From positions 26,908,001-26,972,000 of the forward strand of contig OZ024750.1 in NCBI GenBank assembly GCA_964016885.1: a stretch of 64,000 bases of DNA, given 5' to 3'. Below, in pieces: positions 9,874 through 63,917 of this stretch. A program made the position numbers and the translations under genes. The stretch is from Eledone cirrhosa. Lineage: Eukaryota. Every line of letters starts with the position of its first letter. The first letter of the stretch is position 1. The notes beneath the pieces were generated by a model. It did no database searches. It had not been told where the DNA came from and saw only the letters and a program-made list of their open reading frames with translations.

Positions 9874-10195
9874 CTTCACCCAGGCAGGGGATTTCCACCA
9901 CCTCAAAATGATTAAGGCCCCACAGGACACCTATAAAACTTTAAAAAACAACTTTAAAGAGGACGTGGGTCCCCCCTGCGTCGGGCCCATTAACCGCGTC
10001 CTCCTAAAAAAACTACCCCACCCCCTCCCCAAACACCCACACAACTCCAAACTCCCCAACCACACAACACACTGATGCCCCTACACTTCCACAAACCACC
10101 ACCCACCCAACAACCCATCGCCCACCCTAATGGAAATTGTGCAGCCCAATACCCGGGACGCAGAGAGGTAAGTGCCTTTTCTCTTCACCACCAAC

Positions 10196-13100
10196 ATGGC
10201 TATGCTAAGAGTAGGCTGTTTAAATGCGCGTGGCCTGGGCTCAACTTGGAAGCAAGCAATGCTTCTAAATGACCTCAGGTCACAACGTATAGATGTGATG
10301 GTTATTTGCGAGACCCGGATCAGCAACGTGCGACAGCTGGCCCCCACCTTTGATGACTTTGAGATGCACGCATCTCTCTGTCAGCCCGGAGGTGGGGGTG
10401 GGGTTGTCGTTCTGCTGCAAAAACATCTGGGTCTCGCAACACAGATGGTACATTTGGACCCGGAGGGTCGACTAGTGGTTCTGGACCTTGGCAGTGGTAA
10501 AGGCGGAACGTTTAGGTTGGTAGCCGCCTACGGCCCTTTCGGGTCAATGCGGCCGGACTTCTTCCATCGTCTGGAGACTTTTCTAGGGACGTCCCGCTCC
10601 TTGCTATTAGTGGGGGACTGGAATGGTATCCTACATGCACGCTGGGACTACGTAGGGGGCTGTCCCGATAGAGAGGGGTGTAATAGCCTCAAAGGGTTAA
10701 TCGGTCGATTTGACCTGGCCGATAGATATCGACTAGATTTTCCGACTGCGCCAACCTGGACTTGGGCAAATCGTAGCGGATCATCTAGGTCGTACCTAGA
10801 TAGGTTCTTAGTTAGAATTAAGGATAAGGACTTTTTAAGTTGTCCAAAAATGCGCATGGTTGGTTATTCAGACCACAAATTAGTGACCTGCATGGTCAAC
10901 CTTGACAGAACTCATAGACAGGGAACCGGTTACTGGAAGCTCAACTTGTCCTTACCGGCAAGTAAGGCTTACAGGGACCGGATTAGCACTTTAGTTAAGG
11001 AGCGGTTGACGGGCGCCATCGTCAACAGCAGGTGGTGGGGATCTCTCAAAAGAGAGATTAGAGTAGTCTCTATAGAATTTAGTAAGGAGTTAGCCTCAAA
11101 TAGAAATAGGAAGGAAAGGGAGTTGGTAGATAGTGTAGAAGAGGCAATTAGAAGCGGCGACGTAGCCAGAGTGCTAGCGTCGAGAACGGCCCTGGGCCAG
11201 TTCTTCGACGCGAAACACGAAGACTGCAGCGTCCGAAGCAAAATACGTGCTCTGGGAAACGAGGGGACCAAAGCTGTTAGCTGGGCCCGCGTGACAGAAG
11301 CCAAAAGAGGGAGCAGATCCACTATCCGGTCTTTGCGAGACCAGGATGGACGGGTGATCCTTGAACCTAAGCAGATGTGCGAGGCTTTTCAAAAGCACCT
11401 TGCCGGATTGTTCGGAAGGGGCGGGGAGCCGGTTGGGGATGTGGACTTCGGTCCATACCTCGACGGCCTGCCGCGTCTCTCGGACAGGGAGGCGAAGTCC
11501 TGCGAGGAGCCGATTTCAGCCGCTGAGATAGAGGACGTGCTGAGCCAATGCGGCAAACGCAAATCCCCGGGTCTCGATGGTCTTCCATACGAACTATATC
11601 TAGCTATGCCGGACTTGTTCCCCGATCTCCTCGAGGCGGTCTACTGCAACTGGCAACAGAAGGGGAGAATTCCCTGTGCTGTGACCAAGGGCGAAGTCAC
11701 GCTAGTGAGGAAGGACGAGAACAAGGGGGACGATATAAATAATTTTAGGCCCATAACTCTGCTAAATACAGAGTTACAGATTTTGGCAAAGGTGCTAGCA
11801 AAGAGGTTGGCGCTTGTCGTGGGTAACCTGGTGGTAGATGCGCAGACATGTGCTATCCCGTCCAGGTCCATCCATGACAACCTCCACCTCATGCGATACA
11901 TCATAGAGAGGGTTGGGAACGAACCCGGCTTTGGTGGGGCCCTGATCAACTTGGTTCAATCTAAGGCATTCGATAGGGTCGACCATGGTTACCCGGATGC
12001 GGTGTTAGCGGCGGCAGGCTTCGGACCCATTTTCAGGGGCTGGATCAATGCCATGCACAGCAGCCGCATCTGCTCTAGGGTCAAGGTGAACGGCTACCTC
12101 TCGGAGCCGTTCGAAATCGCGCGGTCCATCTGACAGGGGTGCCCTCTCTCCTCCCTTCTGTATGTAATGACTCTAGAGCCACTGCTGCGGAAGTTGGAGT
12201 TGTTGCAGGGCATTCCGTTGGAACCGGGATTGCGGAAAGCGGTGTCAGCCTACGCCGATGACGTAACAGTAATGGTGTCGACGGCCTCGGAAATCGGGGC
12301 GATCGGCACCTTACTGGAGGAGTACGAAAGGTTTACAGGGGCTAAGCTGAACCGGGACAAGTCGATCGGTCTGCAACTCGGTACGTGGAGGGGAAGATCG
12401 ATGCCCTCCGAAGGCGTTGTCGGGCGCTGGACGGAGGGCCCGGTGAAGTTGCTCGGGGTCTGGTTCGGACCAGACCTCCAGGTGGAGAAGAACTGGGGTG
12501 AGGTAACGAACAGGGTGTTTGCACTGACCCAGAAGTGGGCCGAGTGCAAACTGTCCCTGAAAGGTCGGGCGGAGGTGGCGAACACTTATATAGCGTCCGT
12601 CATCTACTACCGCCTGACCGTTGTGCCTTGCCCAAGGGAAACGCTCGCCAAATTGGAGCGCGCACTCTTCCAATTCCTTTGGAATATTCCAATTCCTTTG
12701 GAAGAAGCGGGCTCCTATGGTGAGGAGATCCATCTGCTGTCAACACCCTTCGAAAGGAGGGCTGGGGATGCCGTGGCTAATGATACGTAAACACGCATTA
12801 AGGCTACGGCACCTTCAGGTATTCCTCTCCGGTCAACCGGTGTGGGCCCCGTTTGTGAGGCGAGCCTTTCCCAGACTCGTCTCACTCACCGAGCTGCAAT
12901 CCTGGGTCAAGCAAAGAGCGAGAAAACTGTGCGCCTGGCACACCGGGTGTGCCCAGGTGCTCACGGCTCTCTGGCAGGCGGACCCGGATGTCAGTGGAGA
13001 ATCCACCTCGTCATTCTATAGAGGGCTGGTGGTTAGCAGGTGCGACGACGCCCTCGGAGAAGCCCTAGGCATGGAGGAAGACGAGCTGGCAAACCTATCG

Positions 13101-19063: not shown

Positions 19064-19225
19064 GAGCGGAAAAGACAGGGGAAAAGACATCAAAACAGAC
19101 ATAGGTAAAAACAGCGGAAAAGACAGCGGAAAAGACAGTGGAAAAGGCAGTGGAAAAGACAGCGGAAAAGACAGTGGAAAAGACAGTGGAAAAGACAAAG
19201 GAAAAGAGAGCGGAAAGGACAGAGG
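19064..19225 (+). repeat. 12-bp tandem repeat (ggaaaagacagy), reading GKDS in one frame
   Basis: About 13 imperfect units. Confidence 0.85.
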
Positions 19226-19708
19226 AGAAAAATCTGGAAAGAAGGGAAATTAGACCACCTAAAAGATATTTCTAAAGATACGGGTGAGTTGATTGTTTTA
19301 TTAACTGTTGAATGTCTATACTTAGTTTAATATTCTCGAAAACCAAAGAAATTTTTTTATTACAGTCTTTGTTATGTGACTTTTACTCATATATGTTTTC
19401 CCTAAATGTCATGAATTTACGTAGATAAGACCTGTAGATGATAAGGATATCCACCGAGCGAATTCCAGAGGAATCTATATACTGGAGGAAACCGACTGTA
19501 TGTTGTGATTTATGTGGACACTAAGGTGGAAGACGACACACATGTTCTTTTAAAAATCCTCTAAATTTGTATTCTGTGGCGTGATATTGCTAGACTTAAA
19601 TCAAATTATCAATACACGCAATATGAAAGATCAGCAAGGAACAGAAATTTTAACTTACATGAGGAAACCGGAATTTTGTAGTGAACTGCCGGAAGTATAA
19701 ATTTAAAT

Positions 19709-19829: not shown

Positions 19830-19927
<98 letters not shown>

Positions 19928-20039
19928 CTTGATCACCTTGATCGACCAGTCTGTCAGGCACCATTGTTGTTCATTTGTTCAACACTGGCAGGAAGGTATA
20001 CGTTGCAGGAAGGTATGCAATCATCTGCAGGAAGGTATA

Positions 20040-20080
20040 CGTTGCTGACGATAACTAATAAGCTTGAAACTAGTACAGCG
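20040..20080 (+). ncRNA. Minimal type I hammerhead (family R, copy 1)
   Basis: cgttg-CTGACGA-taactaataagctt-GAAA-ctag-TA-cagcg. Confidence 0.85.
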
Positions 20081-20470
20081 CTCCTTTTTCAGTGTTGAAC
20101 AAATGAGCAACGATGGTTGCTAGACACTGTACGGCTTAATTCGGGATGTTTGTTTACAAACACACCGAACATTATAATAAATGTTCGGTGAATCCATACG
20201 TACATATATATATGTGTGCATGCATGTATATATATATACATACTACTGTACGTCTGTATACATATATGTATGTACGTATACATACTTATATTTAAGTAAC
20301 AGCCGTACTAAGAGTGAGAAATGAAATTTCGTTTCAATTTTTCCGTTTATCGTTTTCGGTGCGCCCGGCCGATTAACTCACTCGATATGCAAATTAGGCT
20401 GTTCAGCCGCTAATATGCATAAGGAAAGTATATACTTTCAGACGTTCAATCATCCTGGCAGGAAGGTATA

Positions 20471-20510
20471 CGTTATGACGATAGCTAATAAACTTGAAAC
20501 TAGTACAGCG
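20471..20510 (+). ncRNA. Family R hammerhead copy 2, damaged core
   Basis: cgtt-ATGACGA-...-GAAA-ctag-TA-cagcg; C3 and one stem I base lost. Confidence 0.7.
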
Positions 20511-20899
20511 TTCCTTTGTCAGTGTTGAACAAATGAGCAACGATGGTTGCTAGACACTGTACGGCTAAATTCGGGATGTTTGTTTACAAACACACCGAGC
20601 ATTATATTAAATGTTCGGCAAATCCATACGTACATATATATATGTGTTCATGTATGTATATATATATACATACTACTGTACGTCTGTATACATATATGTA
20701 TGTACGTATACATACTTATATTTAAGTAACAGCCGTACTAAGAGTGAGAAATGAAATTTCGTTTCAATTTTTCCGTTTATCGTTTTCGGTGCGCCCGGCC
20801 GATTAACTCACTCGATATGCAAATTAGGCTGTTCAGCCGTTAATATGCATAAGGAAAGTATATACTTTCAGGTGTTCAATAATCTGGCAGGAAGGTATA

Positions 20900-20940
20900 C
20901 GTTGCTGACGATAGCTAATAAACTTGAAACTAGTACAGCG
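20900..20940 (+). ncRNA. Minimal type I hammerhead (family R, copy 3)
   Basis: cgttg-CTGACGA-tagctaataaactt-GAAA-ctag-TA-cagcg. Confidence 0.85.
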
Positions 20941-21229
20941 TTCCTTTGTCAGTGTTGAACAAATGAGCAACGATGGCTGCTAGACACTGTACGGCTTAAT
21001 TTGGAATGTTTGTTTACAAACACACCGAGCATTATAATAAATGTTCGGCGAATCCATACGTACATATATATATATGTGTGTGGATGTATGTATATATATA
21101 TATATATATATACATACTATTGTACGTCTGTATACATATATGTATGTACGTATGCATAAATATATTTAAGTAACAGCCGTACTAAGTGTGAGAAATGAAA
21201 TTTCGTTTCATTTTTTCTGTTGATATATA

Positions 21230-22091
<862 letters not shown>

Positions 22092-22213
22092 AGGAGGTGA
22101 GTTTTATTGTAGTACAATAAAGCAATGCAGATATCGGATAAGAAGCACTCTACAGTTTGTAGGACTGGAGTATACATAATATAAGATCAAAAGATGGTTA
22201 AAGGAGTTCCATG

Positions 22214-22284
22214 TATTTTATTATGCGCATTTCAAAAACAAACATCATCATGCAATAATATTTGTGTTTTCATCAGATAAAACA
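22214..22284 (-). ncRNA. Type I hammerhead (family C, left arm)
   Basis: Reverse complement tgttttat-CTGATGA-aaacacaaatattatt gc atgatgatgtttgttttt-GAAA-tgcgca-TA-ataaaata. Confidence 0.88.
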
Positions 22285-22392
22285 GGAGAACATGATATGA
22301 AGGTTAAAAAACACTTGTGGATAGTGCAGTTTTAAATCAACATATAACTGCACTATCCACAAGTGTTTTTTAGCCTTCATATCATGTTCTCC

Positions 22393-22463
22393 TGTTTTAT
22401 CTGATGAAAACACAAATATTATTGCATGATGATGTTTGTTTTTGAAATGCGCATAATAAAATA
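22393..22463 (+). ncRNA. Type I hammerhead (family C, right arm)
   Basis: Same motif on the plus strand: CTGATGA 22401, GAAA 22444, tgcgca, TA, ataaaata. Confidence 0.88.
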
Positions 22464-22659
22464 CGTGGAACTCCTTTAACCATCTTTTGATCTTATATAT
22501 TATATATAGATATATATATATATATATATAAACACACGCACACGGACACACACACATATATATACATAGATATATATATAAAAAAAGAGTCAGGAGCCCG
22601 ACGGCTGAGCTCCGGACGTTTCGGCAGCTAAATCCGAACTAAGCCACCAGTATTAGAAC

Positions 22660-23147: not shown

Positions 23148-23695
23148 TTTCTTGAAAGGTCGAGCGGAGGTGGCGAACACTTACATTGCGAATTTCTGTT
23201 GTCCTCTGTATAGTGGCTATGGTAAAAGAGGCTATATTGTGGACAAGATGGAGAGGGCTGAGGACAGATGCATTTCACTCCGGACAACTCATTCCCTTCT
23301 TTAGGTACCACTTTAGAAGGAAAATCAGAGTGGAGAGAGAGGGACTGCACCCCAGTAAATTAAACTGGAATGTGGGTGAATGTAGTAAAAGTGGCCCGAG
23401 AGATTGGGCCTTCTCTGTATATAAACCTGTAGGTTGAAGAAGAGAGCAAAAGAAAGAATGGTGCACTTGCACAACACGCTCCTGGAGTTGAGGGTTGTTC
23501 AATCTACGGGGTATAAAACAATACATTTGTAACGCCTCCCACCTGTTGGGGATTTTAATTGTTGAATTTGTGAATTTGTTTGTCAAATTGTTTTTACACT
23601 TTTGTATGTAAAATTCCCGGCATATATCCTTGTATTGTCCCCTTTTCTTGTGCGCCCTTGTGGCAAATAAAGAAATCTATCTATCTATCTATCTA
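23148..23695 (+). mobile_element. Tx1 3' fragment with an internal deletion and (TATC)n tail
   Basis: LKGRAEVANTYIA joined to AMVKEAILWTR; 3' UTR homologous to 25775-26010. Confidence 0.85.
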
Positions 23696-26007
23696 AGATA
23701 CGGGACGCTCAGGGCCGCTGCGGGAAACGCAAGTCACCCAGTATAGATGGTCTACCCTACGAATTTTACATAGGCATGCCGGACTTGTTCTCTGGCGTCC
23801 TCGAAGCCGTCTACTGCAATTGGCAGCAGAACGGGAGAATTCCAAGTTCAGCAGGCAAGGGCGTAGTAACGCTGATCAGGAAAGACGAAAACAACGGGGA
23901 CGAAATTAACAACTTCAGGCCCATAACTCTGCTCAACACAGAGTTAAAAATGTTGGCCAAGGTGCTAGCGACGAGGTAGGGAAAGCGCAAACGTGTGCAA
24001 TCCCGACCACGTCCATACACGACAACCTCCACCTCATGCGATACATCATAGAGAGGGTGGGTGGTAAACCCGGCTTCGGTGGGGCTCTGATCAAATTGGA
24101 TCAGTCTAAGGCATTCGATAGGGTCGACCATCGATACTTGGAAGCGGTTCTCAAGGCGGCCGGTTTCGGTCCCGTGTTCAGAGGATGGATCGATGCGATG
24201 CACACCAGAATCTGCTCGAGGGTCAAGGTGAACGGCTACCTATCGAAGCCGTTCGCAATCACGCGTTCCATTCGACAGGGGTACCTTCTCTCCTCCATTC
24301 TGTATGCATTGACACTAGAGCCACTACTGCGGAAATTGGAGCTGTTGCAGGGCATCCCTCTAGAACCGGGACTGCGCAAAGCGGCGTCGGCTTATGCCGA
24401 CGACGTGACGGTAATGGTGTCGAGCACCTCGGAAATCGGGGTGATCGACAACTTACTGAAAGAATACGAAACGCTGACGGGAGCAAAACTAAACCCGGAC
24501 AAGTCTGTCGGTTTGCAACTCGGTACGTGGAGAGGCAAGCCGATGACGTCCGACAGCGTCGTTGGACGCTGGACGGACGGACCGGTGAAATTGCTCGGGG
24601 TCTGGTTCGGTCCAGACCTCCAGGTGGAGAAAAACTGGAACGAGGTCACGGCCAAGGTGTTTGCACTCACCCAGAAGTGGGCAGAGTGCAAACTGTCCTT
24701 GAAAGGTCGAGCGGAGGTGGCGAACACTTTCATAGCGCCCGTCATCTACTACCGCTTGACTGTCGTGCCTTGTCCCCGTGAACCCCTCGTCAAGATGGAA
24801 CGCATGCTCTTCCAGTTTCTGTGGAAGAAGCAGGCTCCGCTGGTGAGGAGATCCGTCTGCTGTCAGCACCCTTCGAACGGAGGGCTGGGAATGCCGTGGC
24901 TGATGATGCGCAAGCATGCGCTGAGGCTGCGGCATCTCCAGGTATTCCTCACCGACTCCCAACCGGTGTGGGCACCGTTTGTGAGACAGGCTTTCCCACA
25001 GCTCGTCTCGCTAACGGAGCTGCAGTCCTGGGTGAAGAAAAGACCGAAAACGATGGGCGCCTGGCACATTGAATGCGCTCAGGCGCTCACAGTCCTCTGG
25101 CAAGCGGGCGCAGCAATCAGTGGAGACTCCACTTCGACATTCTATAGAGGGATTGTACGTTACAAGGGCGACGACGTGCTCGAAGAGACTCTGGGCGTCG
25201 AAGACGATGAGCTCACCAGTATGTTTGGTAGGACTTTCCGCCCGGGACCTATGGACAACTTCCAGAGGTCCCTGGCCTGGCAGTGCTACCGAGGAGCTCT
25301 ACCGGTTCGTGACAAGATCTACAGGCACGGACGCCCTGGCAGAGATCCTTCCAAGAGGACGTGTCCAAGATGTGCGCAGGACATTGAAACAGTTCTGCAC
25401 GCAATTGTACACTGCCCGGGCGTAAGCGACCTGTGGAACTATGCAGAACAACTGCTGTCGCGTATGGGACAAATACAGTTGACTGCCGAGTCCATAGTAA
25501 GGATCAAACCGCCAGACTCTTTCAAAAAGGAGAGGCGGTTTTCCTCTGTACGGTGGCTATGGTGAAAGAAGTTATATGATGGACGAGGTTGAGAGGACTG
25601 AGGTCAGATGCCTTTCTCTCCGGACAACAATTGATTCCCTTCTTTAAGTATCACTTTAGAAGGAGAATCAGGGTGGAGAGAGAGGCACTGCACCCCAGTA
25701 AATTTACTGAAAGGTGGGTGAATGAAGCGAAAATGGCCCGAGTGATTGGGCCTTCTCTGTTTATAAGCCTGTAGGTTGGGGAAGAGAGCAAAAGGAAGAA
25801 AGGAGCACTTGCACAACACGCTCCTCCAGTTGAGGGTTGTTCTATCGACGGGGTATTAAACAACCCATTTGTGGCGCCTCCCCCCTATTGGGGATTTCGA
25901 TTGTTGAAATTGTTGGTTTTTATAATTTTTACACGACTGTATGTAAAATCCCCGGCATGTCTTTGTATTGTCCCCTTTCTTGTTGCGCCCTTGTGGCTAA
26001 TAAAGAA

Positions 26008-26066
<59 letters not shown>
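23696..26066 (+). mobile_element. 5'-truncated Tx1 element (RT to 3' UTR) with (TATC)n tail
   Basis: RT frames 23776-23979 and 24036-25565 (DQSKAFDRV, YADD, CPRC..H..C), homologous to 11550-13890. Confidence 0.92.
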
Positions 26067-26067
<1 letters not shown>

Positions 26068-27879
26068 CTTTACCTATATATCTACCTATCTACCTATATA
26101 TCTATATGTCTGTCCTGTTAGTCCGTACGTCCTTCCGTCCATTCGTCCATCCATCCATCCCGGCTTTTTAGTGTATTGTTTATTGTCAATTACGTGCGTT
26201 GAAGCTGTTAAATTAAATTTACGTAAATTCAAAAAAATTGCAAGGCACACAATGGACCGATTAATCTTATGTCCACTAATAAATGCAGAAGTATCTTATA
26301 TCTTTACTGTTTTTTTAAAAGTAGGAAATATTGCTCGAGAGACTACAATAGGCACGCCTAGCTAAAACAACATTATTTTATAATCTTCTCTACGTACGCT
26401 CACTTCTCAATTTCATTTCCTTCTCTACATTTCTTTTGACTCTCACTTTTGCTCTTTCTTTTTTTCTGACCCATCTCTCCTTTCTTAACATCACGCCCTC
26501 TCTTAGTTTTTGAGTGACTACTTCATTGGTTGTCTTGCAAACGTGTAACTAACTACTTAGAATAAGCATGACATCTTCAGCTGCATCTGTATATATCTGT
26601 TACTAAATCACATAAGAGAGACGAAATGTGGCTCGAGATTAGTGAGATAAAATCTCTTGTGGTGGTACCATTTGAAATAGTATAACAGTTTATATATTTT
26701 TGTGGGTTGCTCAGATGTCTAGCCACCCTATATAAAACCCGAATGTTATTAATGAACATGATTGTACATTTTTGGACAAAGGTTTCAGTGTGAGAATAAC
26801 ATGATAGCTTGCCGTGTTCCTTTCAGGATCATCTTCTACTTCCACTGACTTCATATTTCCACTGACTTTCAAGGAGGGCAAAGATAAAATATCTCCCATT
26901 GGAAACTTTTAGCTAGACAAAGCAGAACTATACAATGTACGTCAACTTTTGGAAGACTATATTTTCTCTTAGGGCTTACTTTTGACTCATGTTTTCTTTT
27001 AATCATTACAGGCTTTCGATAGAAGAATGTAGACGACTACAGTTTTCCGGCTGGATCAGCTACAGATATCAAAGGAAGAGTTACTTGCAACTTTAATGTG
27101 TCGCATTTCTCTTTCAATGTTTATAATATTAATAATGGAAACTATCAATATTTCAAATTCATTAAACAATAAAAAAAAGTTGAGGATCAGATTCTCACAT
27201 TTTTTTTTCCTTAAAAGTTTGTCAAAATCAAAGAGAAATTCCCACATGACACTCTCATCTGAATTTCTTGTTTGATGTTCAAGTTGAACATCTGTAAATC
27301 ATTGTTAAAAACATGAGTCGGGATATAAAACTAGGTGGGCATTGTTCTGGACAGGAGAGATTATGGGGAAAGAACAATATTAAGAAGAAAAAATATGAGA
27401 GTTGGCGAGGATACGATGAATACGCATGAGGTGAAAAAGTTATGCAAATATCTAGAGCAGAACAACAGATCATTATACTAATGATGTAAACATAAAGAAG
27501 AATAACAGACGGCAAGTCTATGAATGTCCTTTCTGATTTGTTTAATAATGATTGTGTGTATTAGTAGCATTGTTGTGGAGATTTGAGCTGTAGTATAATG
27601 TGCGTTTAAGTTGAACCTAGTAGAGTGTTAGAAATTGAGTGGGATTGATGTATTTTCTGGCTCTATATATGGAATTTAATGTGTGTGAAACAATTTATTC
27701 ATGTGTTATTTCTTAGGTTTCATCAGATGTTCCAATATTTGTATCAATGTTGAAAGTCTTAAGTGTATGTTAATCAGAAGAAACCGAAGAAGAAACCGAA
27801 ATTATAAATCGCATTTCTCTTGGAGTTGCGAACTTAATAATGATTTATTTAATTGTTATAAAATGGTAAAAAAACACCT

Positions 27880-28659: not shown

Positions 28660-31140
28660 TTGTTTACGGAGACATATCCAGGTGTAGGAGGTTTATACGG
28701 GATTTCTTGAAGGAACTTGTTCAAAGACGTCTTGAACTTTATGTGGTCTGTTTCTGTTTTAATATGTTTTGGTGTAATGTTAGAGAGAGTGGTGGCCAAT
28801 TGAGGTGAAATAATTGTGCCGTATTATTGTTATGAGATACAAGTGTGATTTTTGTTGTGAGCGGATAGCCCAAGCCTTAAAGCTGATGGATGCAAACATC
28901 ATTTGGGCAATGCTGATGGAATATTTTCCACATCATGCAGATGATGTAGCGCTCACGTCGACTTTGGAGAAATTAAAGCTTGAGTTTTTCTAGTTGACCC
29001 CAATAGCCAAGTCCTTACATGACATCGATCTTTTTGTGCTTGACATTTGAGGTGCTTAAACTTTCATGATACTTTGTTGCGTGTGGGGAGACCACACTGG
29101 GATACATATCCGGTAGGTTCTGGCGAAATTGGAGAAGAGAAGGACAATTGTGTGGATATGCCTCGACTGGAAAGTTCCGAGAATCCAGGAACACATTCTG
29201 CGGGCCATGTTAATTTTTCAGTTTATATGTTTGGCCCAGATTATGTTGTTGTCTACAATTACTCCCTACTCTTTGATGTTGTTGGTTGCCATAAGAGTTT
29301 CACCTGAAGGAACGGAGTATGGGAGTTTCAGTGCTTCCTCTTTTCCAAAGTGGATTAATTAAAATTTATCACTATTCAACACCATATTGTTCTTTTCCGC
29401 CCATTGGATAACAGTCAGTAAATCTGTTTGAAGGCATATCCGGTCACCCACTCCATTGATGACCTTCTAGAGCTTGGAATCATTTAAAATGTTTATTATA
29501 TTACTGTGCTTGATGATGTCATTAATATCATTTGTATACATGATTAAAAGAAGTGGGCCCAACACAGTGCCTTGTGGAACGTCACTACGGACTTTGGCTG
29601 TGCTTGATTTTTCTCCTTTGATTACAACATGTTAGGCTTTGTCCGTCAGGAATTACATGATCCATTGCAGTAACGTTCCAGAGACACCAATGCTGGATAG
29701 TCTTCTATTCATTACAATCTTGTGGTCAACCCTGTCACAGGTGTTACTTAAATCAAGGTAGAAGAAATCTGTGTTGGTGTCCTCTCCCAATGCTCTCAAA
29801 ATGTCATTAAACTGGTGTAGAAGCTGCGTTAGGCAGTCCATTCATTTACGAAACTCATATTGTTTGGAGTTCAGCAGTCTTTTTCTTTGTGCGTTGGAGA
29901 TTAACACCACTGATACAGCACACATCGGCCATATCAGGATTGCTGAAAACAGAGCAGTATTGTTTCTGCAGTATCTCTCCCATGTTTAGGCATTATCTTG
30001 GAGAGTGCAATTTTCATTAATAAGAGGGCTAGCATTGGAGACAGTGATCTTGTGTTTTTTTCGCAAATGAAAATAACACTTTGGGATTGAGTTTGAGTTT
30101 CTCAATGGCCTATTTCTCTTCAGCTGTTCTTTGGTTATTGATTTTGGTCTTCATACATTCTTGGAAGTTATATCTTTTTTAAACGAGCAGTTCGGTAGCC
30201 ATCGAATGTGTGTGTTGCTGTTGGCAGTATCTTAGTTTAACTTTTTGTTTGTTCTTCGTATTTTTCTGGTAATAGTTTTTCTGTTTGGAGGGATTCTGGA
30301 CTTAGTTTTATTCACAGGTCTTGGCGGAGTGTGTTTTGCACATATGTTTGTGACACTGTCTACAAAGATCTGCCAAGCTGTTTTCATGTTGGTGGAGATG
30401 TGTGCGTTTGTAAAAGTCCAGTCAACATGTGATAGCTCATTCATGATTGCATCCCAATTGGCATTATAGAGATCCATGTTATCAAATGAGTGAGCTGGAT
30501 TAGATTTCGTCTGAAAGAAGGGTTTTTCGACTGTAATATTTTGTATAGTGTTAGTGCGGTTATAAACAGTAGGTCCAAAAGTTTCTTCTGATATCTTGTT
30601 GGTGCAAGAACAAGTTGGGAAAAGAAAATCTCATTAATAAAGTGGAGAATTGACTCTAATGCTTCTTTGTCAGCAGTTGAGGTGGGGATGCCTGGTTTCA
30701 GACTGTATGTAGACCAATCAACACAGGGTAGATTAAAGTCTCCCATCATAAGTATGTTACCAGAATGGCACTGTTGAGTAAAGCACTTAATACGGTTGAA
30801 GCATTCTTTAAAGCGCAGTATGGTTGTTTCAGGTGGCCTATAGAGCCCAACTACTATCAGGTCATTGGCATTGTCCTGCACGGTGACTGATGCACAACAG
30901 CCATTAGAGAATGCGGTATTTCCATCTGGCGTAAAGGAATCATTCAGGAAATTGGCAGATCCACCCTTCCTTCTGTCGATACTATCCGCGCGAATGGTTG
31001 TGAAATTCCTCACTTTCATTTCGGCTTACAAATGGCAGTTGTCAAGGTGGGTCTCTGTAAGAATGAAGAAAGGGATATGGTGTGGATGGTTACGAACCCA
31101 ATTCTTAATGAATTGGACCTTCCATTTTTGTGCATTGAGT
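28660..31140 (-). mobile_element. Decayed CR1/L2-group LINE ORF2 (APE plus RT)
   Basis: VVGLYRPP, MGDFNLPCVDW, PTR..LLDL, YLDLSNTCDRVDH, VPQGTVLGPLL. Confidence 0.85.
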
Positions 31141-31309
31141 AGAAATGTGGAGGCTAGTGTAGTGGGTGGGTTTGACTTGTTTTGTGTTTGCGCGTTAGTG
31201 ATTGCTATGTGGGGAGTTGGTGCAATGGGGTCATAGCATAGGATGGTGTTATGTGACAGCTAGAAGGTTCTTTTGTGTGTTTTGTGCCAGGTGCATCATG
31301 GCTAAAAAA

Positions 31310-31378
<69 letters not shown>

Positions 31379-31424
31379 GGGTTAAATATATATATATAAC
31401 TTTCAATAGATAATAAAATAATAA

Positions 31425-33820
31425 AAATCCCCAGGAAAAGACAAAATACAAAACTTTTGGATAAATGCCTTCACAGAGTCTCAAGAGCTGTTAGCCCAAC
31501 TTTACAATGAAATAGTTAAGGAGCCAGAAAAGATACCTTCATGGCTAGTTAACGGCATTACATTCCTGCTTCCGAAGAATGATGAGACAAACAATCCCCA
31601 AAATTACAGACCGATAACTTGCTTGACCACAATGTATAAAATGTTAACATCAGTCCTAACTGAATACACATATGACCACCTGATAACAAATGACCTATTT
31701 CCCATTGAGCAGAAAGGGTGTAAACGAGGCTCATATGGCTGTAAGGATCAGCTTTTGGTTAACAAAATGATACTGGAAGATTGTCATAATAAACACAAAA
31801 ATCTATCGATTGCTTGGATAGATTATAAAAAAGCATTCGATAGTTTGCCACACAGTTGGATTGAAAAATGTTTAGAGATTTTCAAAATATCCCCCGTTGT
31901 CAGGAGGTTTTTGTCATTCAGTATGAAGACATGGAAAACGAGACTCCTTTTGAATAGTGAAACAAAATCACTGGAAGCTGGAGAAGTTAATATTAATTGT
32001 GGAATTTTTCAGGGTGACTCTTTATCACCGCTTTTATTCTGCATCGCACTTATACCATTAAGTAAAATGCTCAATGAAACAAAACATGGATATAAAGTCT
32101 ATGACAAAACCATTAATCACTTGTTCTACATGGATGACCTGAAACTATTTGCAAAAAATGATGAACAATTGCAAGGTCTATTATCCACTGTGGAGCAGTT
32201 CAGTGATGACATTAAAATGGAGTTTGGACTAGATAAATGCGCCAAAGCAACGTTCACCAGAGGAAAGCTGCTGAAGAGTTCAGACATTAATCTTGATCGG
32301 GGGAACGTGATAAGAGAACTTGATCAAGAAAAAACTTACAAATATCTAGGTGTTTGTGAAGGAGACGGAATCAAGCACTCGACAATGAGGGAAAGGATAA
32401 GGAAGGAATGTTACCGCAGAGTAAGAGCAATCTTAAGAACGGAATTGAATGCAAGGAATAGGATCGATGCCATAAACACGCTTGCCATACCAGTAGTAAC
32501 CTACAGTTACAATGTCATCAACTGGTCAAGCACAGAGATCCGTAGGCTCGATACAAAAATTCGAAAATTCTTAACCATGCACAGAATGCATCACCCTAAG
32601 GCAGATATAGATAGAATATATCTCCCTAGGAAAGAAGGAGGACGTGGGTTAATGTAGTTAGACATTGCGTTGAAAACTGCAACAATTGGATTATCTACAT
32701 ATCTAAGGGAATCACATGATTGGATGATCAAACTCGTTTTGAAACACGAAAGCATCAAAAGATCATATTCCATTACAAAAGATGCACAAAGATACAGTAA
32801 TGGACTACAAATTTCAGAAGTCTCATTTACTGCTGAAATGGAAAACACAGAAAAAGCAAAGCAGGTAAAAGTAACTGCAAAGAAAGAACTGCTACAGAAA
32901 CTGGCTAAGAAATGGCAAGAAAAGCCTCTGTATGGAAAATACCCAGAGCGAGCTAACAATCCTGATGTTGACAAAACTTTAACCCATCAGTGGTTGGCAT
33001 CCTCTGGACTGAAATCGGAGACTGAAGGACTGATTATATCAGCACAAGATCAGTGTCTGCCAACAAAAAATTACCAAGCCAACATAATAAAAAATGGATG
33101 CAGCCCATTATGCCGTGTATGCAAAAAACAACCAGAGACCATTGACCATATAATTTCAATGTGCAGTCCTATAGCTCCAACCGAATACCTAAACAGGCAT
33201 GACAGAGCTACACAATACATACATTGGATAATGTGTAAGCATTTTGACCTGCCCCATCAAAAGAATTGGTGGGAGCATCAACCACCTCCCATACTTGAAA
33301 ACGATCACATCTCAATCTTGTGGAACTTTAGCATCCAAACAGACCGAAAAATAGATGCGAATAGACCTGATATAATATTGAAGGACTTTAAAAAGAGGGT
33401 ATGCCTGCTAATTGATATGTCTGTTCCAATAGACAAGAATGTATCTATAAAAACATTTGAAAAATTGAGCAAGTATAAGGACCTGGAGATAGAAATTGGA
33501 AAAATGTGGAAATTGAGAACTAAAACAATACCAGTGGTTGTAGGCGCTCTGGGAATGATACCTAAGGGGTCTAATGATTACTTATCGCAAATCCCAGGAA
33601 ACCCGCGTATAGGAGAAATACAAAAGATAGTACTAATGGGAACTGCCCATATACTAAGGAAGATTCTGTCAATATAAGTACATCACAAGTCTAAACACTA
33701 AAGATGCATGTGTGAGTATGTATGTTCTTTCTTGAACATGGCGGACCTTGTTGTCTCTTGAGGTCACTGGTTGTGACTTGGTGATAACTCGTATGAACAT
33801 AAAGCAAGATAAATGCAACT

Positions 33821-37938: not shown

Positions 37939-37988
<50 letters not shown>

Positions 37989-37993
<5 letters not shown>

Positions 37994-38531
37994 AATCATT
38001 TTTTAATTTATTTAAAGGATTGTTTAATGTTTGTTTGTTCTGCTCATCAATTTTTATAGTTCTGGTATCTCAAATTAGTACCATAGAACAACAATTATAT
38101 TATAAACACCCTATATATCTCTATGGGTACTTAGTACTCAGTGAGATATTTACCTCATTTTTATACATTCTCCAATGTATGTAGAGAAAAAAATTCGTTG
38201 TTGCTTACTGCTATTTTTTTAGCAGCCAACCCATCAACAAGTCTGTAATATTCCCGCTTGCACTAGCGGCCGGGTCACGTGTGGGTCACTTTAACGCCCA
38301 TAACTCATACGAGCTGGTAGTTGGCATTATATTTGCGGACCGTGGGACGTTTGTCCTATAGAAAGGAAATAGCTATCTGATGAAATCTACTTTCCGTTGG
38401 AAATTCTCTGAATTTCCAATCTTTTGTAGATGGAAACCGCCGGTAATAGCATTATGAACAGGTAGATATTTAAATCATTTTTTAATTTATTTAAAGGATT
38501 GTTTAATGTTTGTTTGTTCTGCTCATCAATT

Positions 38532-38532
<1 letters not shown>
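37989..38532 (+). mobile_element. Retrozyme-like monomer (family B relative) with an about 64-nt terminal redundancy, period 479, in (TA)n
   Basis: 37989-38052 recurs at 38468-38531; homologous along its length to 21460-21986. Confidence 0.85.
38372..38450 (+). ncRNA. Type I hammerhead with extended stem II (family B)
   Basis: gctat-CTGATGA-a atctac..ttggaaatt ctctg aatttccaa..gtagat g-GAAA-cc gcc gg-TA-atagc. Confidence 0.9.
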
Positions 38533-38613
<81 letters not shown>

Positions 38614-39790: not shown

Positions 39791-39852
39791 GCCTTAATAA
39801 AATGAATATACATATATAGTATGTTGTTGTTGTATCTGGGTGGACGAATATA

Positions 39853-41805
39853 ATGCAGCCCAACAAAAGGACTGCCAACAACTTCCAGGCCTGGAACAAT
39901 GACGTGCCGGCGTTGTATGGGCTCCGAAAAGACCATAAAACGGGCTGGGACCCTGTCGCGGGACCACCAACACGGCCAGTCTGTGGGGCTAACATTGCTA
40001 GTAACTACAGACTGTCCTACTTCCTCTCCCTGATCATACGCCCCATTATTGAGATGTCCCCAGATGTGTGTGACAGCACGGAGGACCTCCTCAGCAGAAT
40101 CGGCGCGGGTAACCGATCTGGGGACCTAACAAACTGCATAATAGGCAGTATGGATGTTGTGTCCCTGTATCCATCTATTGACGTGGATTTTGCTGTGGAG
40201 AAATGCGTCGAAATGATCAGCGAGAGCAAGGTTGAGTTCCGTGGGATTGATACCAGTGAGCTGGGACTTCTACTTAAGCTTACCCATAGTAATAGTTACC
40301 TAGACACTTATGATATTAGCAACCTGTGCCCTACAAGACCAGCAAGGGGCAGACCACCTACCATTACCTCAATGGCCAAGAAAACCCACACAGATAGATG
40401 GAACGGGTGGACCAGAGCCATACGGACACCCGAAAACCACGATGAACTGAAGAAAATGATTGCACATGCGGTAGGGGCCAGCATAAAATTAACCCTTAAG
40501 GAACATATGTTCAAATTTAATGGTAAAACATATGCCCAAGAGGAAGGAGCAGCCATTGGTGTTAGCATTGCAGGCGACATAGCTAACTTATTCATGGTAT
40601 GGTGGGACAGTAGACTTAAACAAAAACTTAATGAACAATTAGAAGACAGCTTAACCCTGATAATGTACTCCCGCTACGTAGATGATATAAACATCGTAGT
40701 TAAGACACCCCCACTAAAGAACAGTCAGGAACTAGAGAAAAACACAATGGAAAGCATCCAGCAAATAGCAAACTCCATCCACCAGAGCAATAGAGTTACT
40801 ATAGACTACCCAAGTAGACACCCCAACCATCGATTACCTGTACTAGACACAGAGCTCTGGTTAGATACCATTAACAACCAAAAACAAATCCTCCATTCCC
40901 ATTATGCCAAACCCATGACTTCCAAACATCTGATCCACCGAAACTCGGCCATTTCGGACCATACCAAAATCAACATACTGATTGCGGATTTGGTACGGGT
41001 GATGAGAAATGTGTCCCGCATGTGCAACCCCGAAGAACTAGAGAGACACATACAACACTTCATCCACCGTATGCAGTTCTCTGGCTACAATCAGAGAGAT
41101 AGGACCAGAGTGTATAAAGGAGCCAGAACCAAATGGGAAAAAATGTTAAATAATGACATAAATGGGACCTGCCCCTTGTATAGGAGCAAATTTTGGAATA
41201 GAATAGAAAGAACTAGGAACAAGGCCAATAGAATAAACTCATGGTATGATAGCAATAAATACCAGAGTGTAATGTTCATCAATACAACCCCTAGAGGCGA
41301 ACTAGCCTACAAATTTAGAAGGGCCCTAAATAAACATAATCTCAATATTAAGATAGTAGAAAGACCTGGTACCTCCATAAAAACACTTATTAGCAAGACA
41401 TACCCGTTCCAAAGACCCTCATGTATAGATAAGAAATGTATAACCTGTAAAATAAGCCCCCATATTAACTGTAAAACTAGAAATGTAGTGTATAGCATAA
41501 GATGTACTGAAGGACAATGTAGAAACAAAAATATAGTGTACATAGGTGAGACAGCTCGTAGTATAAAGGAACGAATAAATGAACACTGGCGAGACCTCCA
41601 AGATAATAAAGAATCATCTGTGCTCTACCAACATGCTAAGATGGAACACAGGGGTAGATTAGAGAGCATAGAAATAAAAATAGAATCCACACACAGAAAA
41701 GACGCAATGTTTAGGCAAATTACAGAGGCAGTAAGCATAAAAGAATTAAAACCAAAATTAAATAGAAAATATGAGTGCAACAGCAACATCACAACTTACA
41801 ATTAA
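39853..41805 (+). CDS. Penelope-like (probably Naiad clade) RT plus GIY-YIG endonuclease, uninterrupted 650 aa, probably 5'-truncated
   Basis: GLRKDHK, RPVCGA, SMDVVSLYPSI, GAAIG, RYVDD, LPVLD, HYAKPM, C-x4-C-x2-C linker, VVYSIRC..C..YIGETARSIKERINEH. Confidence 0.9.
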   Translation: MQPNKRTANNFQAWNNDVPALYGLRKDHKTGWDPVAGPPTRPVCGANIASNYRLSYFLSLIIRPIIEMSPDVCDSTEDLLSRIGAGNRSGDLTNCIIGSMDVVSLYPSIDVDFAVEKCVEMISESKVEFRGIDTSELGLLLKLTHSNSYLDTYDISNLCPTRPARGRPPTITSMAKKTHTDRWNGWTRAIRTPENHDELKKMIAHAVGASIKLTLKEHMFKFNGKTYAQEEGAAIGVSIAGDIANLFMVWWDSRLKQKLNEQLEDSLTLIMYSRYVDDINIVVKTPPLKNSQELEKNTMESIQQIANSIHQSNRVTIDYPSRHPNHRLPVLDTELWLDTINNQKQILHSHYAKPMTSKHLIHRNSAISDHTKINILIADLVRVMRNVSRMCNPEELERHIQHFIHRMQFSGYNQRDRTRVYKGARTKWEKMLNNDINGTCPLYRSKFWNRIERTRNKANRINSWYDSNKYQSVMFINTTPRGELAYKFRRALNKHNLNIKIVERPGTSIKTLISKTYPFQRPSCIDKKCITCKISPHINCKTRNVVYSIRCTEGQCRNKNIVYIGETARSIKERINEHWRDLQDNKESSVLYQHAKMEHRGRLESIEIKIESTHRKDAMFRQITEAVSIKELKPKLNRKYECNSNITTYN

Positions 41806-42111
41806 GGACAAAATGAAAACACACACACACATAGAACAAACAACTTACAATTGAAAACACACACAAAATGAAAACACACACAGGACAAAATGAAAACACA
41901 CACACACATAGAACAAACAACCAACCAACAATAAATAAATAAATAAATAAACAAATAGAAAAATATGAATAGAAAAATAAAAAATAAACACAAACACACA
42001 CAGACACCCGGATGTGGCGCATGCACAAACTGAGCACACAACACACACACAGAAACAAAATGGCGTAGGATAGAAGAAAGCAAAGGCACAGAAACGAAGA
42101 AAGGAATCCCC

Positions 42112-42156
42112 AGTCACTGAAAAGGTCACAGAGTGTGTGACGAAAGGACTATGACT
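42112..42156 (+). ncRNA. Hammerhead-like motif in the Naiad-like 3' pLTR, variant core CTGAAAA
   Basis: agtca-CTGAAAA-g gtcaca gagtg tgtgac-GAAA-ggac-TA-tgact; stems I and II pair perfectly. Confidence 0.72.
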
Positions 42157-42305
42157 ATATATATAAACAACTATCTGGTTGCGGAACCAACCAACCAACC
42201 AGAAATTTATAAGTTTGTAGATTTGTAAATTTGTAAATTTATGAATTTATAAATATATAATAAATTGAAGTGAAAGCAGCTGGTGCGTGTGTTTCTTATT
42301 GGCAA

Positions 42306-42505
42306 NNNNNNNNNNNNNNNNNNNNNNNNNNNNNNNNNNNNNNNNNNNNNNNNNNNNNNNNNNNNNNNNNNNNNNNNNNNNNNNNNNNNNNNNNNNNNNN
42401 NNNNNNNNNNNNNNNNNNNNNNNNNNNNNNNNNNNNNNNNNNNNNNNNNNNNNNNNNNNNNNNNNNNNNNNNNNNNNNNNNNNNNNNNNNNNNNNNNNNN
42501 NNNNN
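42306..42505. other. Assembly gap (200 N)
   Basis: Run of N. Confidence 1.
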
Positions 42506-44332: not shown

Positions 44333-44604
44333 GTAGGAGGTGAGTTTTATTGTAGTACAATAAAGCAATGCATATATCGGATAAGAAGCACTCTACAGTT
44401 TGTAGGACTGGAGTATGCATAATATAAGATCAAAAGATGGTTAAAGGAGTTCCATGTATTTTATTATGCGCATTTTAGCCTCCATATCATGTTCTCCTGT
44501 TTTATCTGATGAAAACACAAATATTATTGCATGATGATGTTTGTTTTTGAAATGCGCATAATAAAATACATGGAACTCCTTTAACCATCTTTTGATCTTA
44601 TATT
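44333..44604. mobile_element. Family C fold-back HHR element with a shorter inverted arm
   Basis: Homologous to 22089-22498 with a different inversion junction; flanked by (TA)n. Confidence 0.9.
44498..44568 (+). ncRNA. Type I hammerhead (family C)
   Basis: tgttttat-CTGATGA-stem II-GAAA-tgcgca-TA-ataaaata. Confidence 0.88.
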
Positions 44605-53805: not shown

Positions 53806-53939
53806 ATGGACATACGAGCTGAGGATCCGTTAAGGTGAAACAATTGTTCTCGATGTGGTGAACTAACTGTTGTGTAACCACTTCTACCTAACTCTACTGA
53901 GTGCTCTACCACTACGGATGTTACCTTCCAGTGTTCTAC

Positions 53940-63416: not shown

Positions 63417-63496
<80 letters not shown>

Positions 63497-63498
<2 letters not shown>

Positions 63499-63917
63499 AA
63501 TAGAATGAAACGAAATTTCATTTCTCACTCTTAGTACGGCACTTACATAAAAGTAAGTATGTATGTATGTATACGTACATACATATATGTATACAGACGT
63601 ACAGTAGTATGTATATATATACATACATGCACGCATATATATATATATATGCACGTATCGGTTTACCGAACATTTATTGTAATGCTCGGTTTGTTTGTTT
63701 GTAAACAAACAAACAGCCCGAATTACGCCGTACAGTGTTTAGGCAACCACGTCACCCATTTGTTTAACACTGACACAGGAACGATGTACTAGTTTCATGC
63801 TTATTAGCTATCGTCAGCATCGTATACCTTCCTACCAGATGGTTGAACGTCTGAAAGTATATACTTTCCTTATGCATATTAACGGCTGAGTAGCCTAATT
63901 TGCATATCGAGTGAGTT
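63497..63917 (-). mobile_element. Dispersed monomer of retrozyme family R
   Basis: Reverse complement of the 430-nt unit; ends next to (TA)n at about the same position as the array. Confidence 0.9.
63781..63823 (-). ncRNA. Minimal type I hammerhead (family R), best-paired copy
   Basis: acgatg-CTGACGA-ta gct aata agc at-GAAA-ctag-TA-catcgt. Confidence 0.92.

Follow-up and report, generated by a model that had tools for sequence, protein, structure and literature searches.

Non-LTR retrozymes are an already described class of animal repeats, among which the axolotl element Rtz_353 with its hammerhead HHR_Amex2 (Cervera and de la Pena 2020, PMC7229834). According to the available text of that paper, stem II of HHR_Amex2 has a U.U pair at its base, stem III is 2 bp long, and cleavage is more efficient in the dimeric form; tails, inversions and cephalopods are not mentioned in its main text. 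Non-LTR retrozymes have been regarded as non-autonomous derivatives of Penelope-like elements (PLEs) on the grounds of co-occurrence and homology to PLE pseudo-LTRs (pLTRs), as set out in the accessible part of a preprint by Li, Clavereau and Pollet (bioRxiv 10.64898/2026.07.22.740005), the main text of which leaves the insertion footprint untreated. Arguments about which enzyme moves animal retrozymes still draw on co-occurrence and on resemblance between sequences. Inverted insertions of EN+ PLEs, carrying a tail at one end, are known (Craig 2021, PMC8557442; Arkhipova 2013, PMC3846280; available sections). In vitro, the tail corresponds to the span between two start sites of the reverse transcriptase (RT), both strands of the target are extended, and insertion does not need ribozyme cleavage (Frangieh 2024, PMC11167929).

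The locus described here belongs to a known kind of element, and is decayed. It resides in a 64,000-nt stretch of DNA from Eledone cirrhosa, analysed as a whole and hereafter called the window. It is moderately probable, the circle step being included in this judgement, that it represents a decayed insertion of a non-coding 430-nt hammerhead family, spread by a Penelope-like RT which likely copies circular RNA into (TA)n. The assignment of the family alone, as a non-LTR retrozyme or non-autonomous PLE, is highly probable. New here is the genomic evidence for Penelope-driven two-site priming of a retrozyme; the class itself was already known. Should the two-site, circular-RNA reading be true, the family would represent, within the reach of the literature search, the first cephalopod retrozyme to be described; none was found in the search, and the supplements of PMC7229834 and bioRxiv 10.64898/2026.07.22.740005 may list some.

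As documented in the available text of PMC7229834, axolotl Rtz_353 and the family have in common a tandem non-coding unit, a GC content of 36-37%, a type I hammerhead, a 2-bp stem III and the U.U pair at the base of stem II. Animal non-LTR retrozymes described there also resemble the family in the strongly self-paired predicted circle, the thousands of copies and the presence of PLEs in the same genome. Invertebrate retrozyme circles measure 170-400 nt in that text, and the 430-nt unit is slightly longer; in addition, the target-site duplication is unreadable in (TA)n here, and cleavage and circles of the family are predictions. The retrozymes of bioRxiv 10.64898/2026.07.22.740005 similarly co-occur with PLEs, have units of 51-972 bp, a range which includes the present one, and occur as monomers, dimers and long arrays. 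In the accessible part of that work the argument is built on pLTR homology and co-occurrence, whereas here pLTR homology was not found, and the evidence is the insertion footprint (tail, inversion, (TA)n).

Tandem and ribozymes at the locus

Three hammerhead GUA sites are spaced exactly 430 nt apart, as claimed in the preliminary description, with predicted cleavage after positions 20075, 20505 and 20935. Tandem-repeat analysis of the window delimits the array to 20018-21221 (period 430, 2.8 copies, 93% matches). All units lie on the + strand: unit 1 at 20018..20447, unit 2 at 20448..20877, and a partial unit 3 at 20878..21224, which stops at the long end site of the family (unit position 333). 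The short (~20285-20292) and long (~20343-20352) end sites are both read through in unit 1 (20285..20352, +). The array had been correctly described as non-coding and as terminating in (TA)n, since the longest ATG ORF of a doubled unit is 49 aa in the sense and 64 aa in the antisense direction, and a (TA)n target tract is found at the 3' end, at 21223..21302. The internal hairpin singled out earlier is also real (20163..20190, +; z -6.16). The predicted site-to-site monomer (20076..20505, +) gives a circular fold of -133.8 kcal/mol (z ~ -8 against 60 shuffles), for which a TA-rich palindrome is partly responsible. All four units folded as circles (4/4) gave z values of -7.4 to -8.4, and the predicted circle is strongly self-paired.

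The 5' side is more complex. The start previously placed at 19985 falls inside the 5' junction of the element, but the junction is stuttered, two short repeats of the ribozyme 5' strand occupying 19985..20017 (+), and is preceded by 28 nt which repeat unit positions 73-100 in inverted orientation (19960..19987, -). The inverted piece and the direct arm meet at CTG, the distal stem I complement of the ribozyme; we infer that the piece is likely a short cDNA fold-back. Further to the left lies the 3' end of a SINE-like repeat (19925..19964, -), unrelated to the retrozyme and provided, by inspection, with a tRNA-like head. It is joined to the retrozyme piece via a common ATGGT, a case of microhomology, and is flanked on the left by a (TA)n tract (19863..19924). 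A second, more diverged insertion of the family is found at 63491..63917 (-); it stops at the long site, and the covarying pair of stem I discussed below is A-U in this copy.

In the family ribozyme, stem I consists of 5 proximal bp, a 6-nt bulge and a distal stem; stem II has 3-4 bp over a U.U pair at its base, and stem III is a palindrome of 2 bp. As modelled, it is a canonical-type type I hammerhead, with an internal loop in stem I and a short stem II. One such ribozyme is found in each unit of a tandem with a period of a few hundred bp, the arrangement by which retrozymes are recognised. The palindrome noticed earlier in stem III is present as ACUAGU. Minimal PLE hammerheads (Cervera and de la Pena 2014, PMC4209133; available text) are similar in type I topology and in the short palindromic stem III suited to dimer cleavage; the family ribozyme differs from them by the short helix II, the 6-nt bulge in stem I and the U.U pair. 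A relaxed type I hammerhead descriptor matched none of 20,000 dinucleotide shuffles of the unit. Rfam at the gathering score returned nothing within the window; at E<=5, only TA-hairpin microRNA look-alikes and one weak off-site hammerhead match were retrieved, and hammerhead models failed to match even the intact ribozymes of another family locus (L069) at the same threshold. One stem I pair reads U.G 209 times, G.U 19 times (in 13 loci) and A-U 4 times, a covariation reflecting one or two inherited events, not many. In a 10-row alignment, the rows of which were hand-picked to include variants, 94% of the pairing cells are paired, versus 29-40% in slid controls.

The ribozymes of the locus deviate from this consensus. 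Copy 2 had been described as damaged, and has indeed lost core C3, but it is not the sole one, as all three ribozymes carry lesions. Hammerhead 1 (20025..20092, +) has mismatches in stem II at 20054, where A replaces the family G, and in distal stem I at 20081 and 20088. Hammerhead 2 (20455..20522, +), besides the loss of C3, has a stem II mismatch at 20492; hammerhead 3 (20884..20952, +) has an intact core and a stem II mismatch at 20922. The change at 20492 and 20922 (A, family G) is a rare mismatch common to copies 2 and 3. The predicted probability of stem II is 0.02, 0.01 and 0.11 in copies 1, 2 and 3, respectively, versus 0.95-0.98 in intact family sites, a set of eight sites, two of which are the same locus read twice. 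Because of the stem II lesions, the hammerhead is not obtained in minimum-energy folds of the window's ribozymes. On these models, little activity is predicted for any of the three ribozymes. The proposal that the locus may yield an 860-nt product finds no support, given the stem II lesions in all three cores. Such a product would require that sites 1 and 3 be cut and site 2 be spared, and the folds do not support this. Moreover, judging from the double-hammerhead topology, each core of a dimeric hammerhead should cut the site of its partner, and a dead core 2 would therefore not protect site 2. Intact ribozymes in consecutive units are missing at this locus and found at others, for example at L053. 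By the rule for active copies given in the accessible part of bioRxiv 10.64898/2026.07.22.740005 (consecutive units each with a complete ribozyme), the locus would not rank as active.

Insertion ends and candidate Penelope partners

The 430-nt repeat family is young and distributed genome-wide. In a copy-number survey of the 3.0-Gb genome, the intact 37-nt hammerhead core had 5,032 exact matches; the family counts several thousand copies. The unit is non-coding, low in GC and without long terminal repeats. Insertions are dispersed and short, most sampled arms being less than two units long; they feature fixed 3' ends and ragged 5' ends, 5' truncation, partial tandems and inverted 5' copies, are targeted to (TA)n, and have a tail at one end only, the traits by which mobilisation by PLEs is recognised. 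In the available sections of PMC8557442 and PMC3846280, EN+ PLEs exhibit the same partial tandems, 5' truncation, inverted 5' copy, one-end tail and preference for (TA)n. They differ in the length of the tail (30-40 nt, versus ~60 nt here), and the retrozyme has no ORF and a ribozyme of canonical type, not minimal.

Arms stop at two fixed sites abutting (TA)n, located at unit positions ~277 (short) and 333 (long). Genome-wide, exact ends abutting TA number 3,808 at the long site and 2,884 at the short one. The distance between the two sites is the tail, 59-61 nt depending on the rule adopted. In head-to-head inverted loci a short end is paired with a long end in 44 of 46 cases (p 3e-11); this set is made of simple two-arm inverted loci with both ends classed, 20 loci with one unclassified end being left out, and the same arm count leaves out insertions touching the locus edge or shorter than 150 nt, and complex multi-arm loci. 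In position-ordered lists the pairing is 19/19, five loci being common to the 44/46 set. The two ends and the short/long pairing are the 'tail' signature of Penelope, and the two-end pattern of the retrozyme is best set beside the two-site internal priming of EN+ PLEs (PMC11167929). Fixed ends, (TA)n, core copies and short/long pairing lend stronger support to the notion, present in the preliminary description, of a retrozyme family mobilised by Penelope.

Once duplicate loci are removed, there are 21 of 44 inverted loci in which each arm includes sequence absent from the other, and both arms therefore need their own template there. Fold-back copying had been considered as the general origin of inverted arms, and was rejected as it cannot account for these 21 loci; it may apply to the remaining 23, and to the 28-nt piece found here. 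The near-strict short/long pairing, together with arms which cannot be mutual copies in 21/44 loci, bears on the origin of Penelope inversions. A literature search, for sources available in part, retrieved no application of twin priming to Penelope tails.

A candidate source of the enzyme resides in the window. PLE-A, the 3' part of an autonomous PLE (RT plus GIY-YIG), spans 39820..42306 (+), and is neither adjacent nor homologous to the unit. PLE-A has 39,568 candidate matches, the best 150 of which are at 97-100%, and frames of up to 1,281 aa. It stops in (TA)n at two sites inside the start of its own ORF, with a tail of 60 nt, and outward-facing pairs are short/long in 9/10 cases, by inspection. 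Measured by one rule, tails are 61 nt for the retrozyme, 60 for PLE-A, 65 for PLE-N3, ~40 for N2 and ~91 for family B; a stricter rule gives 59 (retrozyme) versus 60 (PLE-A). The unit and the terminal region or junction of PLE-A have no significant similarity. The long-end region of the unit weakly resembles the short end of N3 (5/1,000 shuffles), this being the best of 12 comparisons. The partner is likely PLE-A or N3, with PLE-A as the best candidate and PLE-N3 as the second among those PLE families, some in number, whose tails were measured. A Penelope-specific two-site footprint is visible on a non-coding repeat, tail length points to named ORF-bearing candidates in the same genome, and the partner question becomes thereby testable with an existing in vitro assay.

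Pfam detects GIY-YIG just over the cut-off, and RVT_1 under it, in the 661-aa PLE-A fragment of the window; in the 1,280-aa PLE-A frame of L170 neither RT nor GIY-YIG was detected by Pfam. The best named homologue of a co-resident PLE protein is an Octopus vulgaris protein (69%), a match that makes an octopod host likely. PLE-A is very abundant and young; its full frame can be seen at L170 4760-8599 (-), and it features a CxxxxCxxC linker, an Asn/Thr/His-rich N-terminal insert and, in the 3' UTR, a minimal hammerhead of its own. By the published description of the CxxxxCxxC linker, PLE-A may be classed as Neptune-like. At L045 1090-1120 a PLE-A terminal repeat passes without a gap into a retrozyme fragment, a few nucleotides short of the PLE-A short end; the junction was not counted as evidence of partnership, as template switch or target deletion could produce it. 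L248-L277 and L308-L327 contain at least six additional PLE families with GIY-YIG, the majority of which terminate in (TA)n. N1 and N3 carry, by eye, hammerhead-like cores in which position 3 is U and position 8 is A, possibly a compensatory variant of the core.

The abundance of PLEs raises the question of whether the unit may be the pseudo-LTR, or the 3' end, of a coding PLE left in the genome as truncated fragments. That it be only the pLTR of such an element had been envisaged earlier; this was looked for, and not found. The unit does have all the end marks of a PLE, Xenopus retrozymes resemble pLTRs (accessible part of bioRxiv 10.64898/2026.07.22.740005), and many PLE families, of which some were sampled, populate the genome. 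Yet in 134 of 139 cases, sequence running through the long site enters the next ribozyme no more than 170 nt further on, although arrays make these counts non-independent; in the remaining five, the unit gives way to different sequences or to rearranged fragments of itself. Among 90 loci, no upstream flank is common except further retrozyme units. No ORF runs across the retrozyme tail, in contrast to the PLE-A tail, which lies in the ORF start. Matches to the unit near 50 GIY-YIG and 30 PLE-A loci look like separate neighbouring insertions, not terminal repeats. Finally, PLE ribozymes are usually minimal (PMC4209133, available text), and that of the family is canonical-type. The organization of an autonomous PLE, an RT plus GIY-YIG ORF set between terminal repeats and with the tail inside the ORF start, was not found for the unit. 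A coding parent, if any, would be rare (less than ~2% of copies), and it is improbable that the unit represents leftover ends of a coding PLE.

Nature of the template

Under the explanation preferred here, which involves Penelope copying of circular RNA, intact copies of the family would be transcribed, and would self-cleave, probably as dimers because of the 2-bp palindromic stem III; the products would then be ligated to 430-nt circles. In reads, the junction of such a circle would be indistinguishable from that between tandem units. A dimer of the Penelope protein would cut both strands of a (TA)n target, one cDNA being primed at the long site, and another at the short site. Each cDNA would circle the template over a variable distance, and the two would be joined head to head, or a single cDNA would be joined to the flank. 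At this locus, an arm primed at the long site may have run for 2.8 laps, and been joined via a short fold-back and microhomology steps.

Of 152 arms, 132 extend across the cleavage site, a figure inflated because loci were chosen via the ribozyme or the sequence around it. The 5' ends do not pile up at the cleavage site, only two falling within a few bases of it. An apparent excess of 5' ends near unit positions 1-33 is in part an effect of alignment boundaries and selection. Since arms run through the cleavage site, the template was continuous there, and therefore either circular or uncleaved. The same family may have used the same Penelope machinery on an uncleaved linear multimer, the ribozyme being slow or dispensable and circles a by-product, an alternative that is possible albeit doubtful. 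It accounts for the crossing of the cleavage site as well as the circle does, and finds a parallel in the anole PLE, which used mostly unprocessed RNA, and of which ribozyme mutants inserted normally (PMC11167929). It is also in keeping with the cleavage in vitro of one of nine Xenopus elements (bioRxiv 10.64898/2026.07.22.740005, accessible part), with the rare stem II change common to two of the three window units, and with long arrays, such as that of 49 complete units on C1, as possible sources. In turn, arms are mostly shorter than two units, and few loci would be able to supply multi-lap linear templates; the core is strongly conserved, with one stem pair swapped in a compensatory manner; and circles have been demonstrated in coral, mussel and axolotl.

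Sequence divergence bears on the issue, as laps inside one arm are not identical, which favors a linear template. Divergence is 3.6% between laps of one arm, 3.75% between paired arms and 5.1% between loci. Minor alleles are in common at 72/99 sites for laps, 74/129 for arms and 1,916/12,552 for loci. Duplicate loci were dropped from the divergence and arm-containment counts, and arrays L128 and L129 from the minor-allele concordance. The identity of laps is below that expected for one monomer circle, unless later mutation and conversion are invoked. On present analysis, the circle would be favored mainly by precedent.

A two-unit periodicity is found at some other loci. Among seven arrays with at least three complete units, three alternate two unit types, one of them with a ribozyme stem mismatch; two have 4- or 8-unit periods, one has none, and one is homogeneous. 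L012 and L081 stay in phase up to the last lap, as expected of a dimer circle. Two-unit arrays were not accepted as proof of dimer circles, because the ribozyme lesion is missing from the last lap of L123, and DNA-level duplication is visible in L053; both L053 and L123 show signs of DNA-level expansion. A fuller scenario is offered tentatively. According to it, a Penelope dimer would use the two cut strands to prime two cDNAs ~60 nt apart on circular retrozyme RNA, the tail length would identify PLE-A independently of homology, alternating arrays of intact and weakened units would be copies of 840-860-nt dimer circles, and the family would constitute a genome-scale record of insertion.

Long arrays of the 430-nt unit are found at C1:51.77-51.79 Mb (L124-L126), L128 and L129, and contain 49, 19 and 11 complete units, respectively. 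The 19-unit array has an 8-unit and the 49-unit array a 4-unit higher-order periodicity. Such periodicities, and the signs of DNA-level expansion, are what would be expected of a DNA satellite spread by unequal exchange, in which the ribozyme motif is vestigial or accidental. This origin is hard to reconcile with thousands of dispersed short insertions having fixed 3' ends, ragged 5' ends and 5' inversions, or with the failure of the descriptor to match any of the 20,000 shuffles. It is very improbable for the family, and largely refuted as the main mode of spread, but holds for the growth of some long arrays.

Other elements in the window

Two further families with hammerhead motifs reside close to the tandem. 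Family B (22086-22506, both strands, and 44380-44600) is a young element of fold-back type, each arm of which carries a hammerhead motif, with a near-fixed centre and a tail of ~90 nt; ends are short/long in 27 of 28 pairs from 30 loci. No autonomous partner of family B was found. Family C (21301-21987 and 37984-38534) is a second tandem, with a period of ~477-487 nt and a hammerhead helix II ~50 nt long. It has 1,928 candidate matches and terminates in (TA)n, one end class being seen; a guessed short end gave 0 matches. The hammerhead descriptor also matches at 482-440 (-), in a distinct (TA)n-flanked sequence, and, weakly, at 53819-53860 (+).

Remains of non-LTR retrotransposons, with RT and endonuclease domains, occupy 10172-12790, 23151-26105 and 30441-33677; in the copy at 23.2-26.0 kb the 3' end is duplicated and terminates in (ATCT)n. 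Upstream of the retrozyme tandem, at 19065-19226, a 12-nt tandem of 13.5 copies reads as repeated GKDS in one short open frame, and is followed near 19285 by a donor-like GTGAGT, possibly marking an exon.
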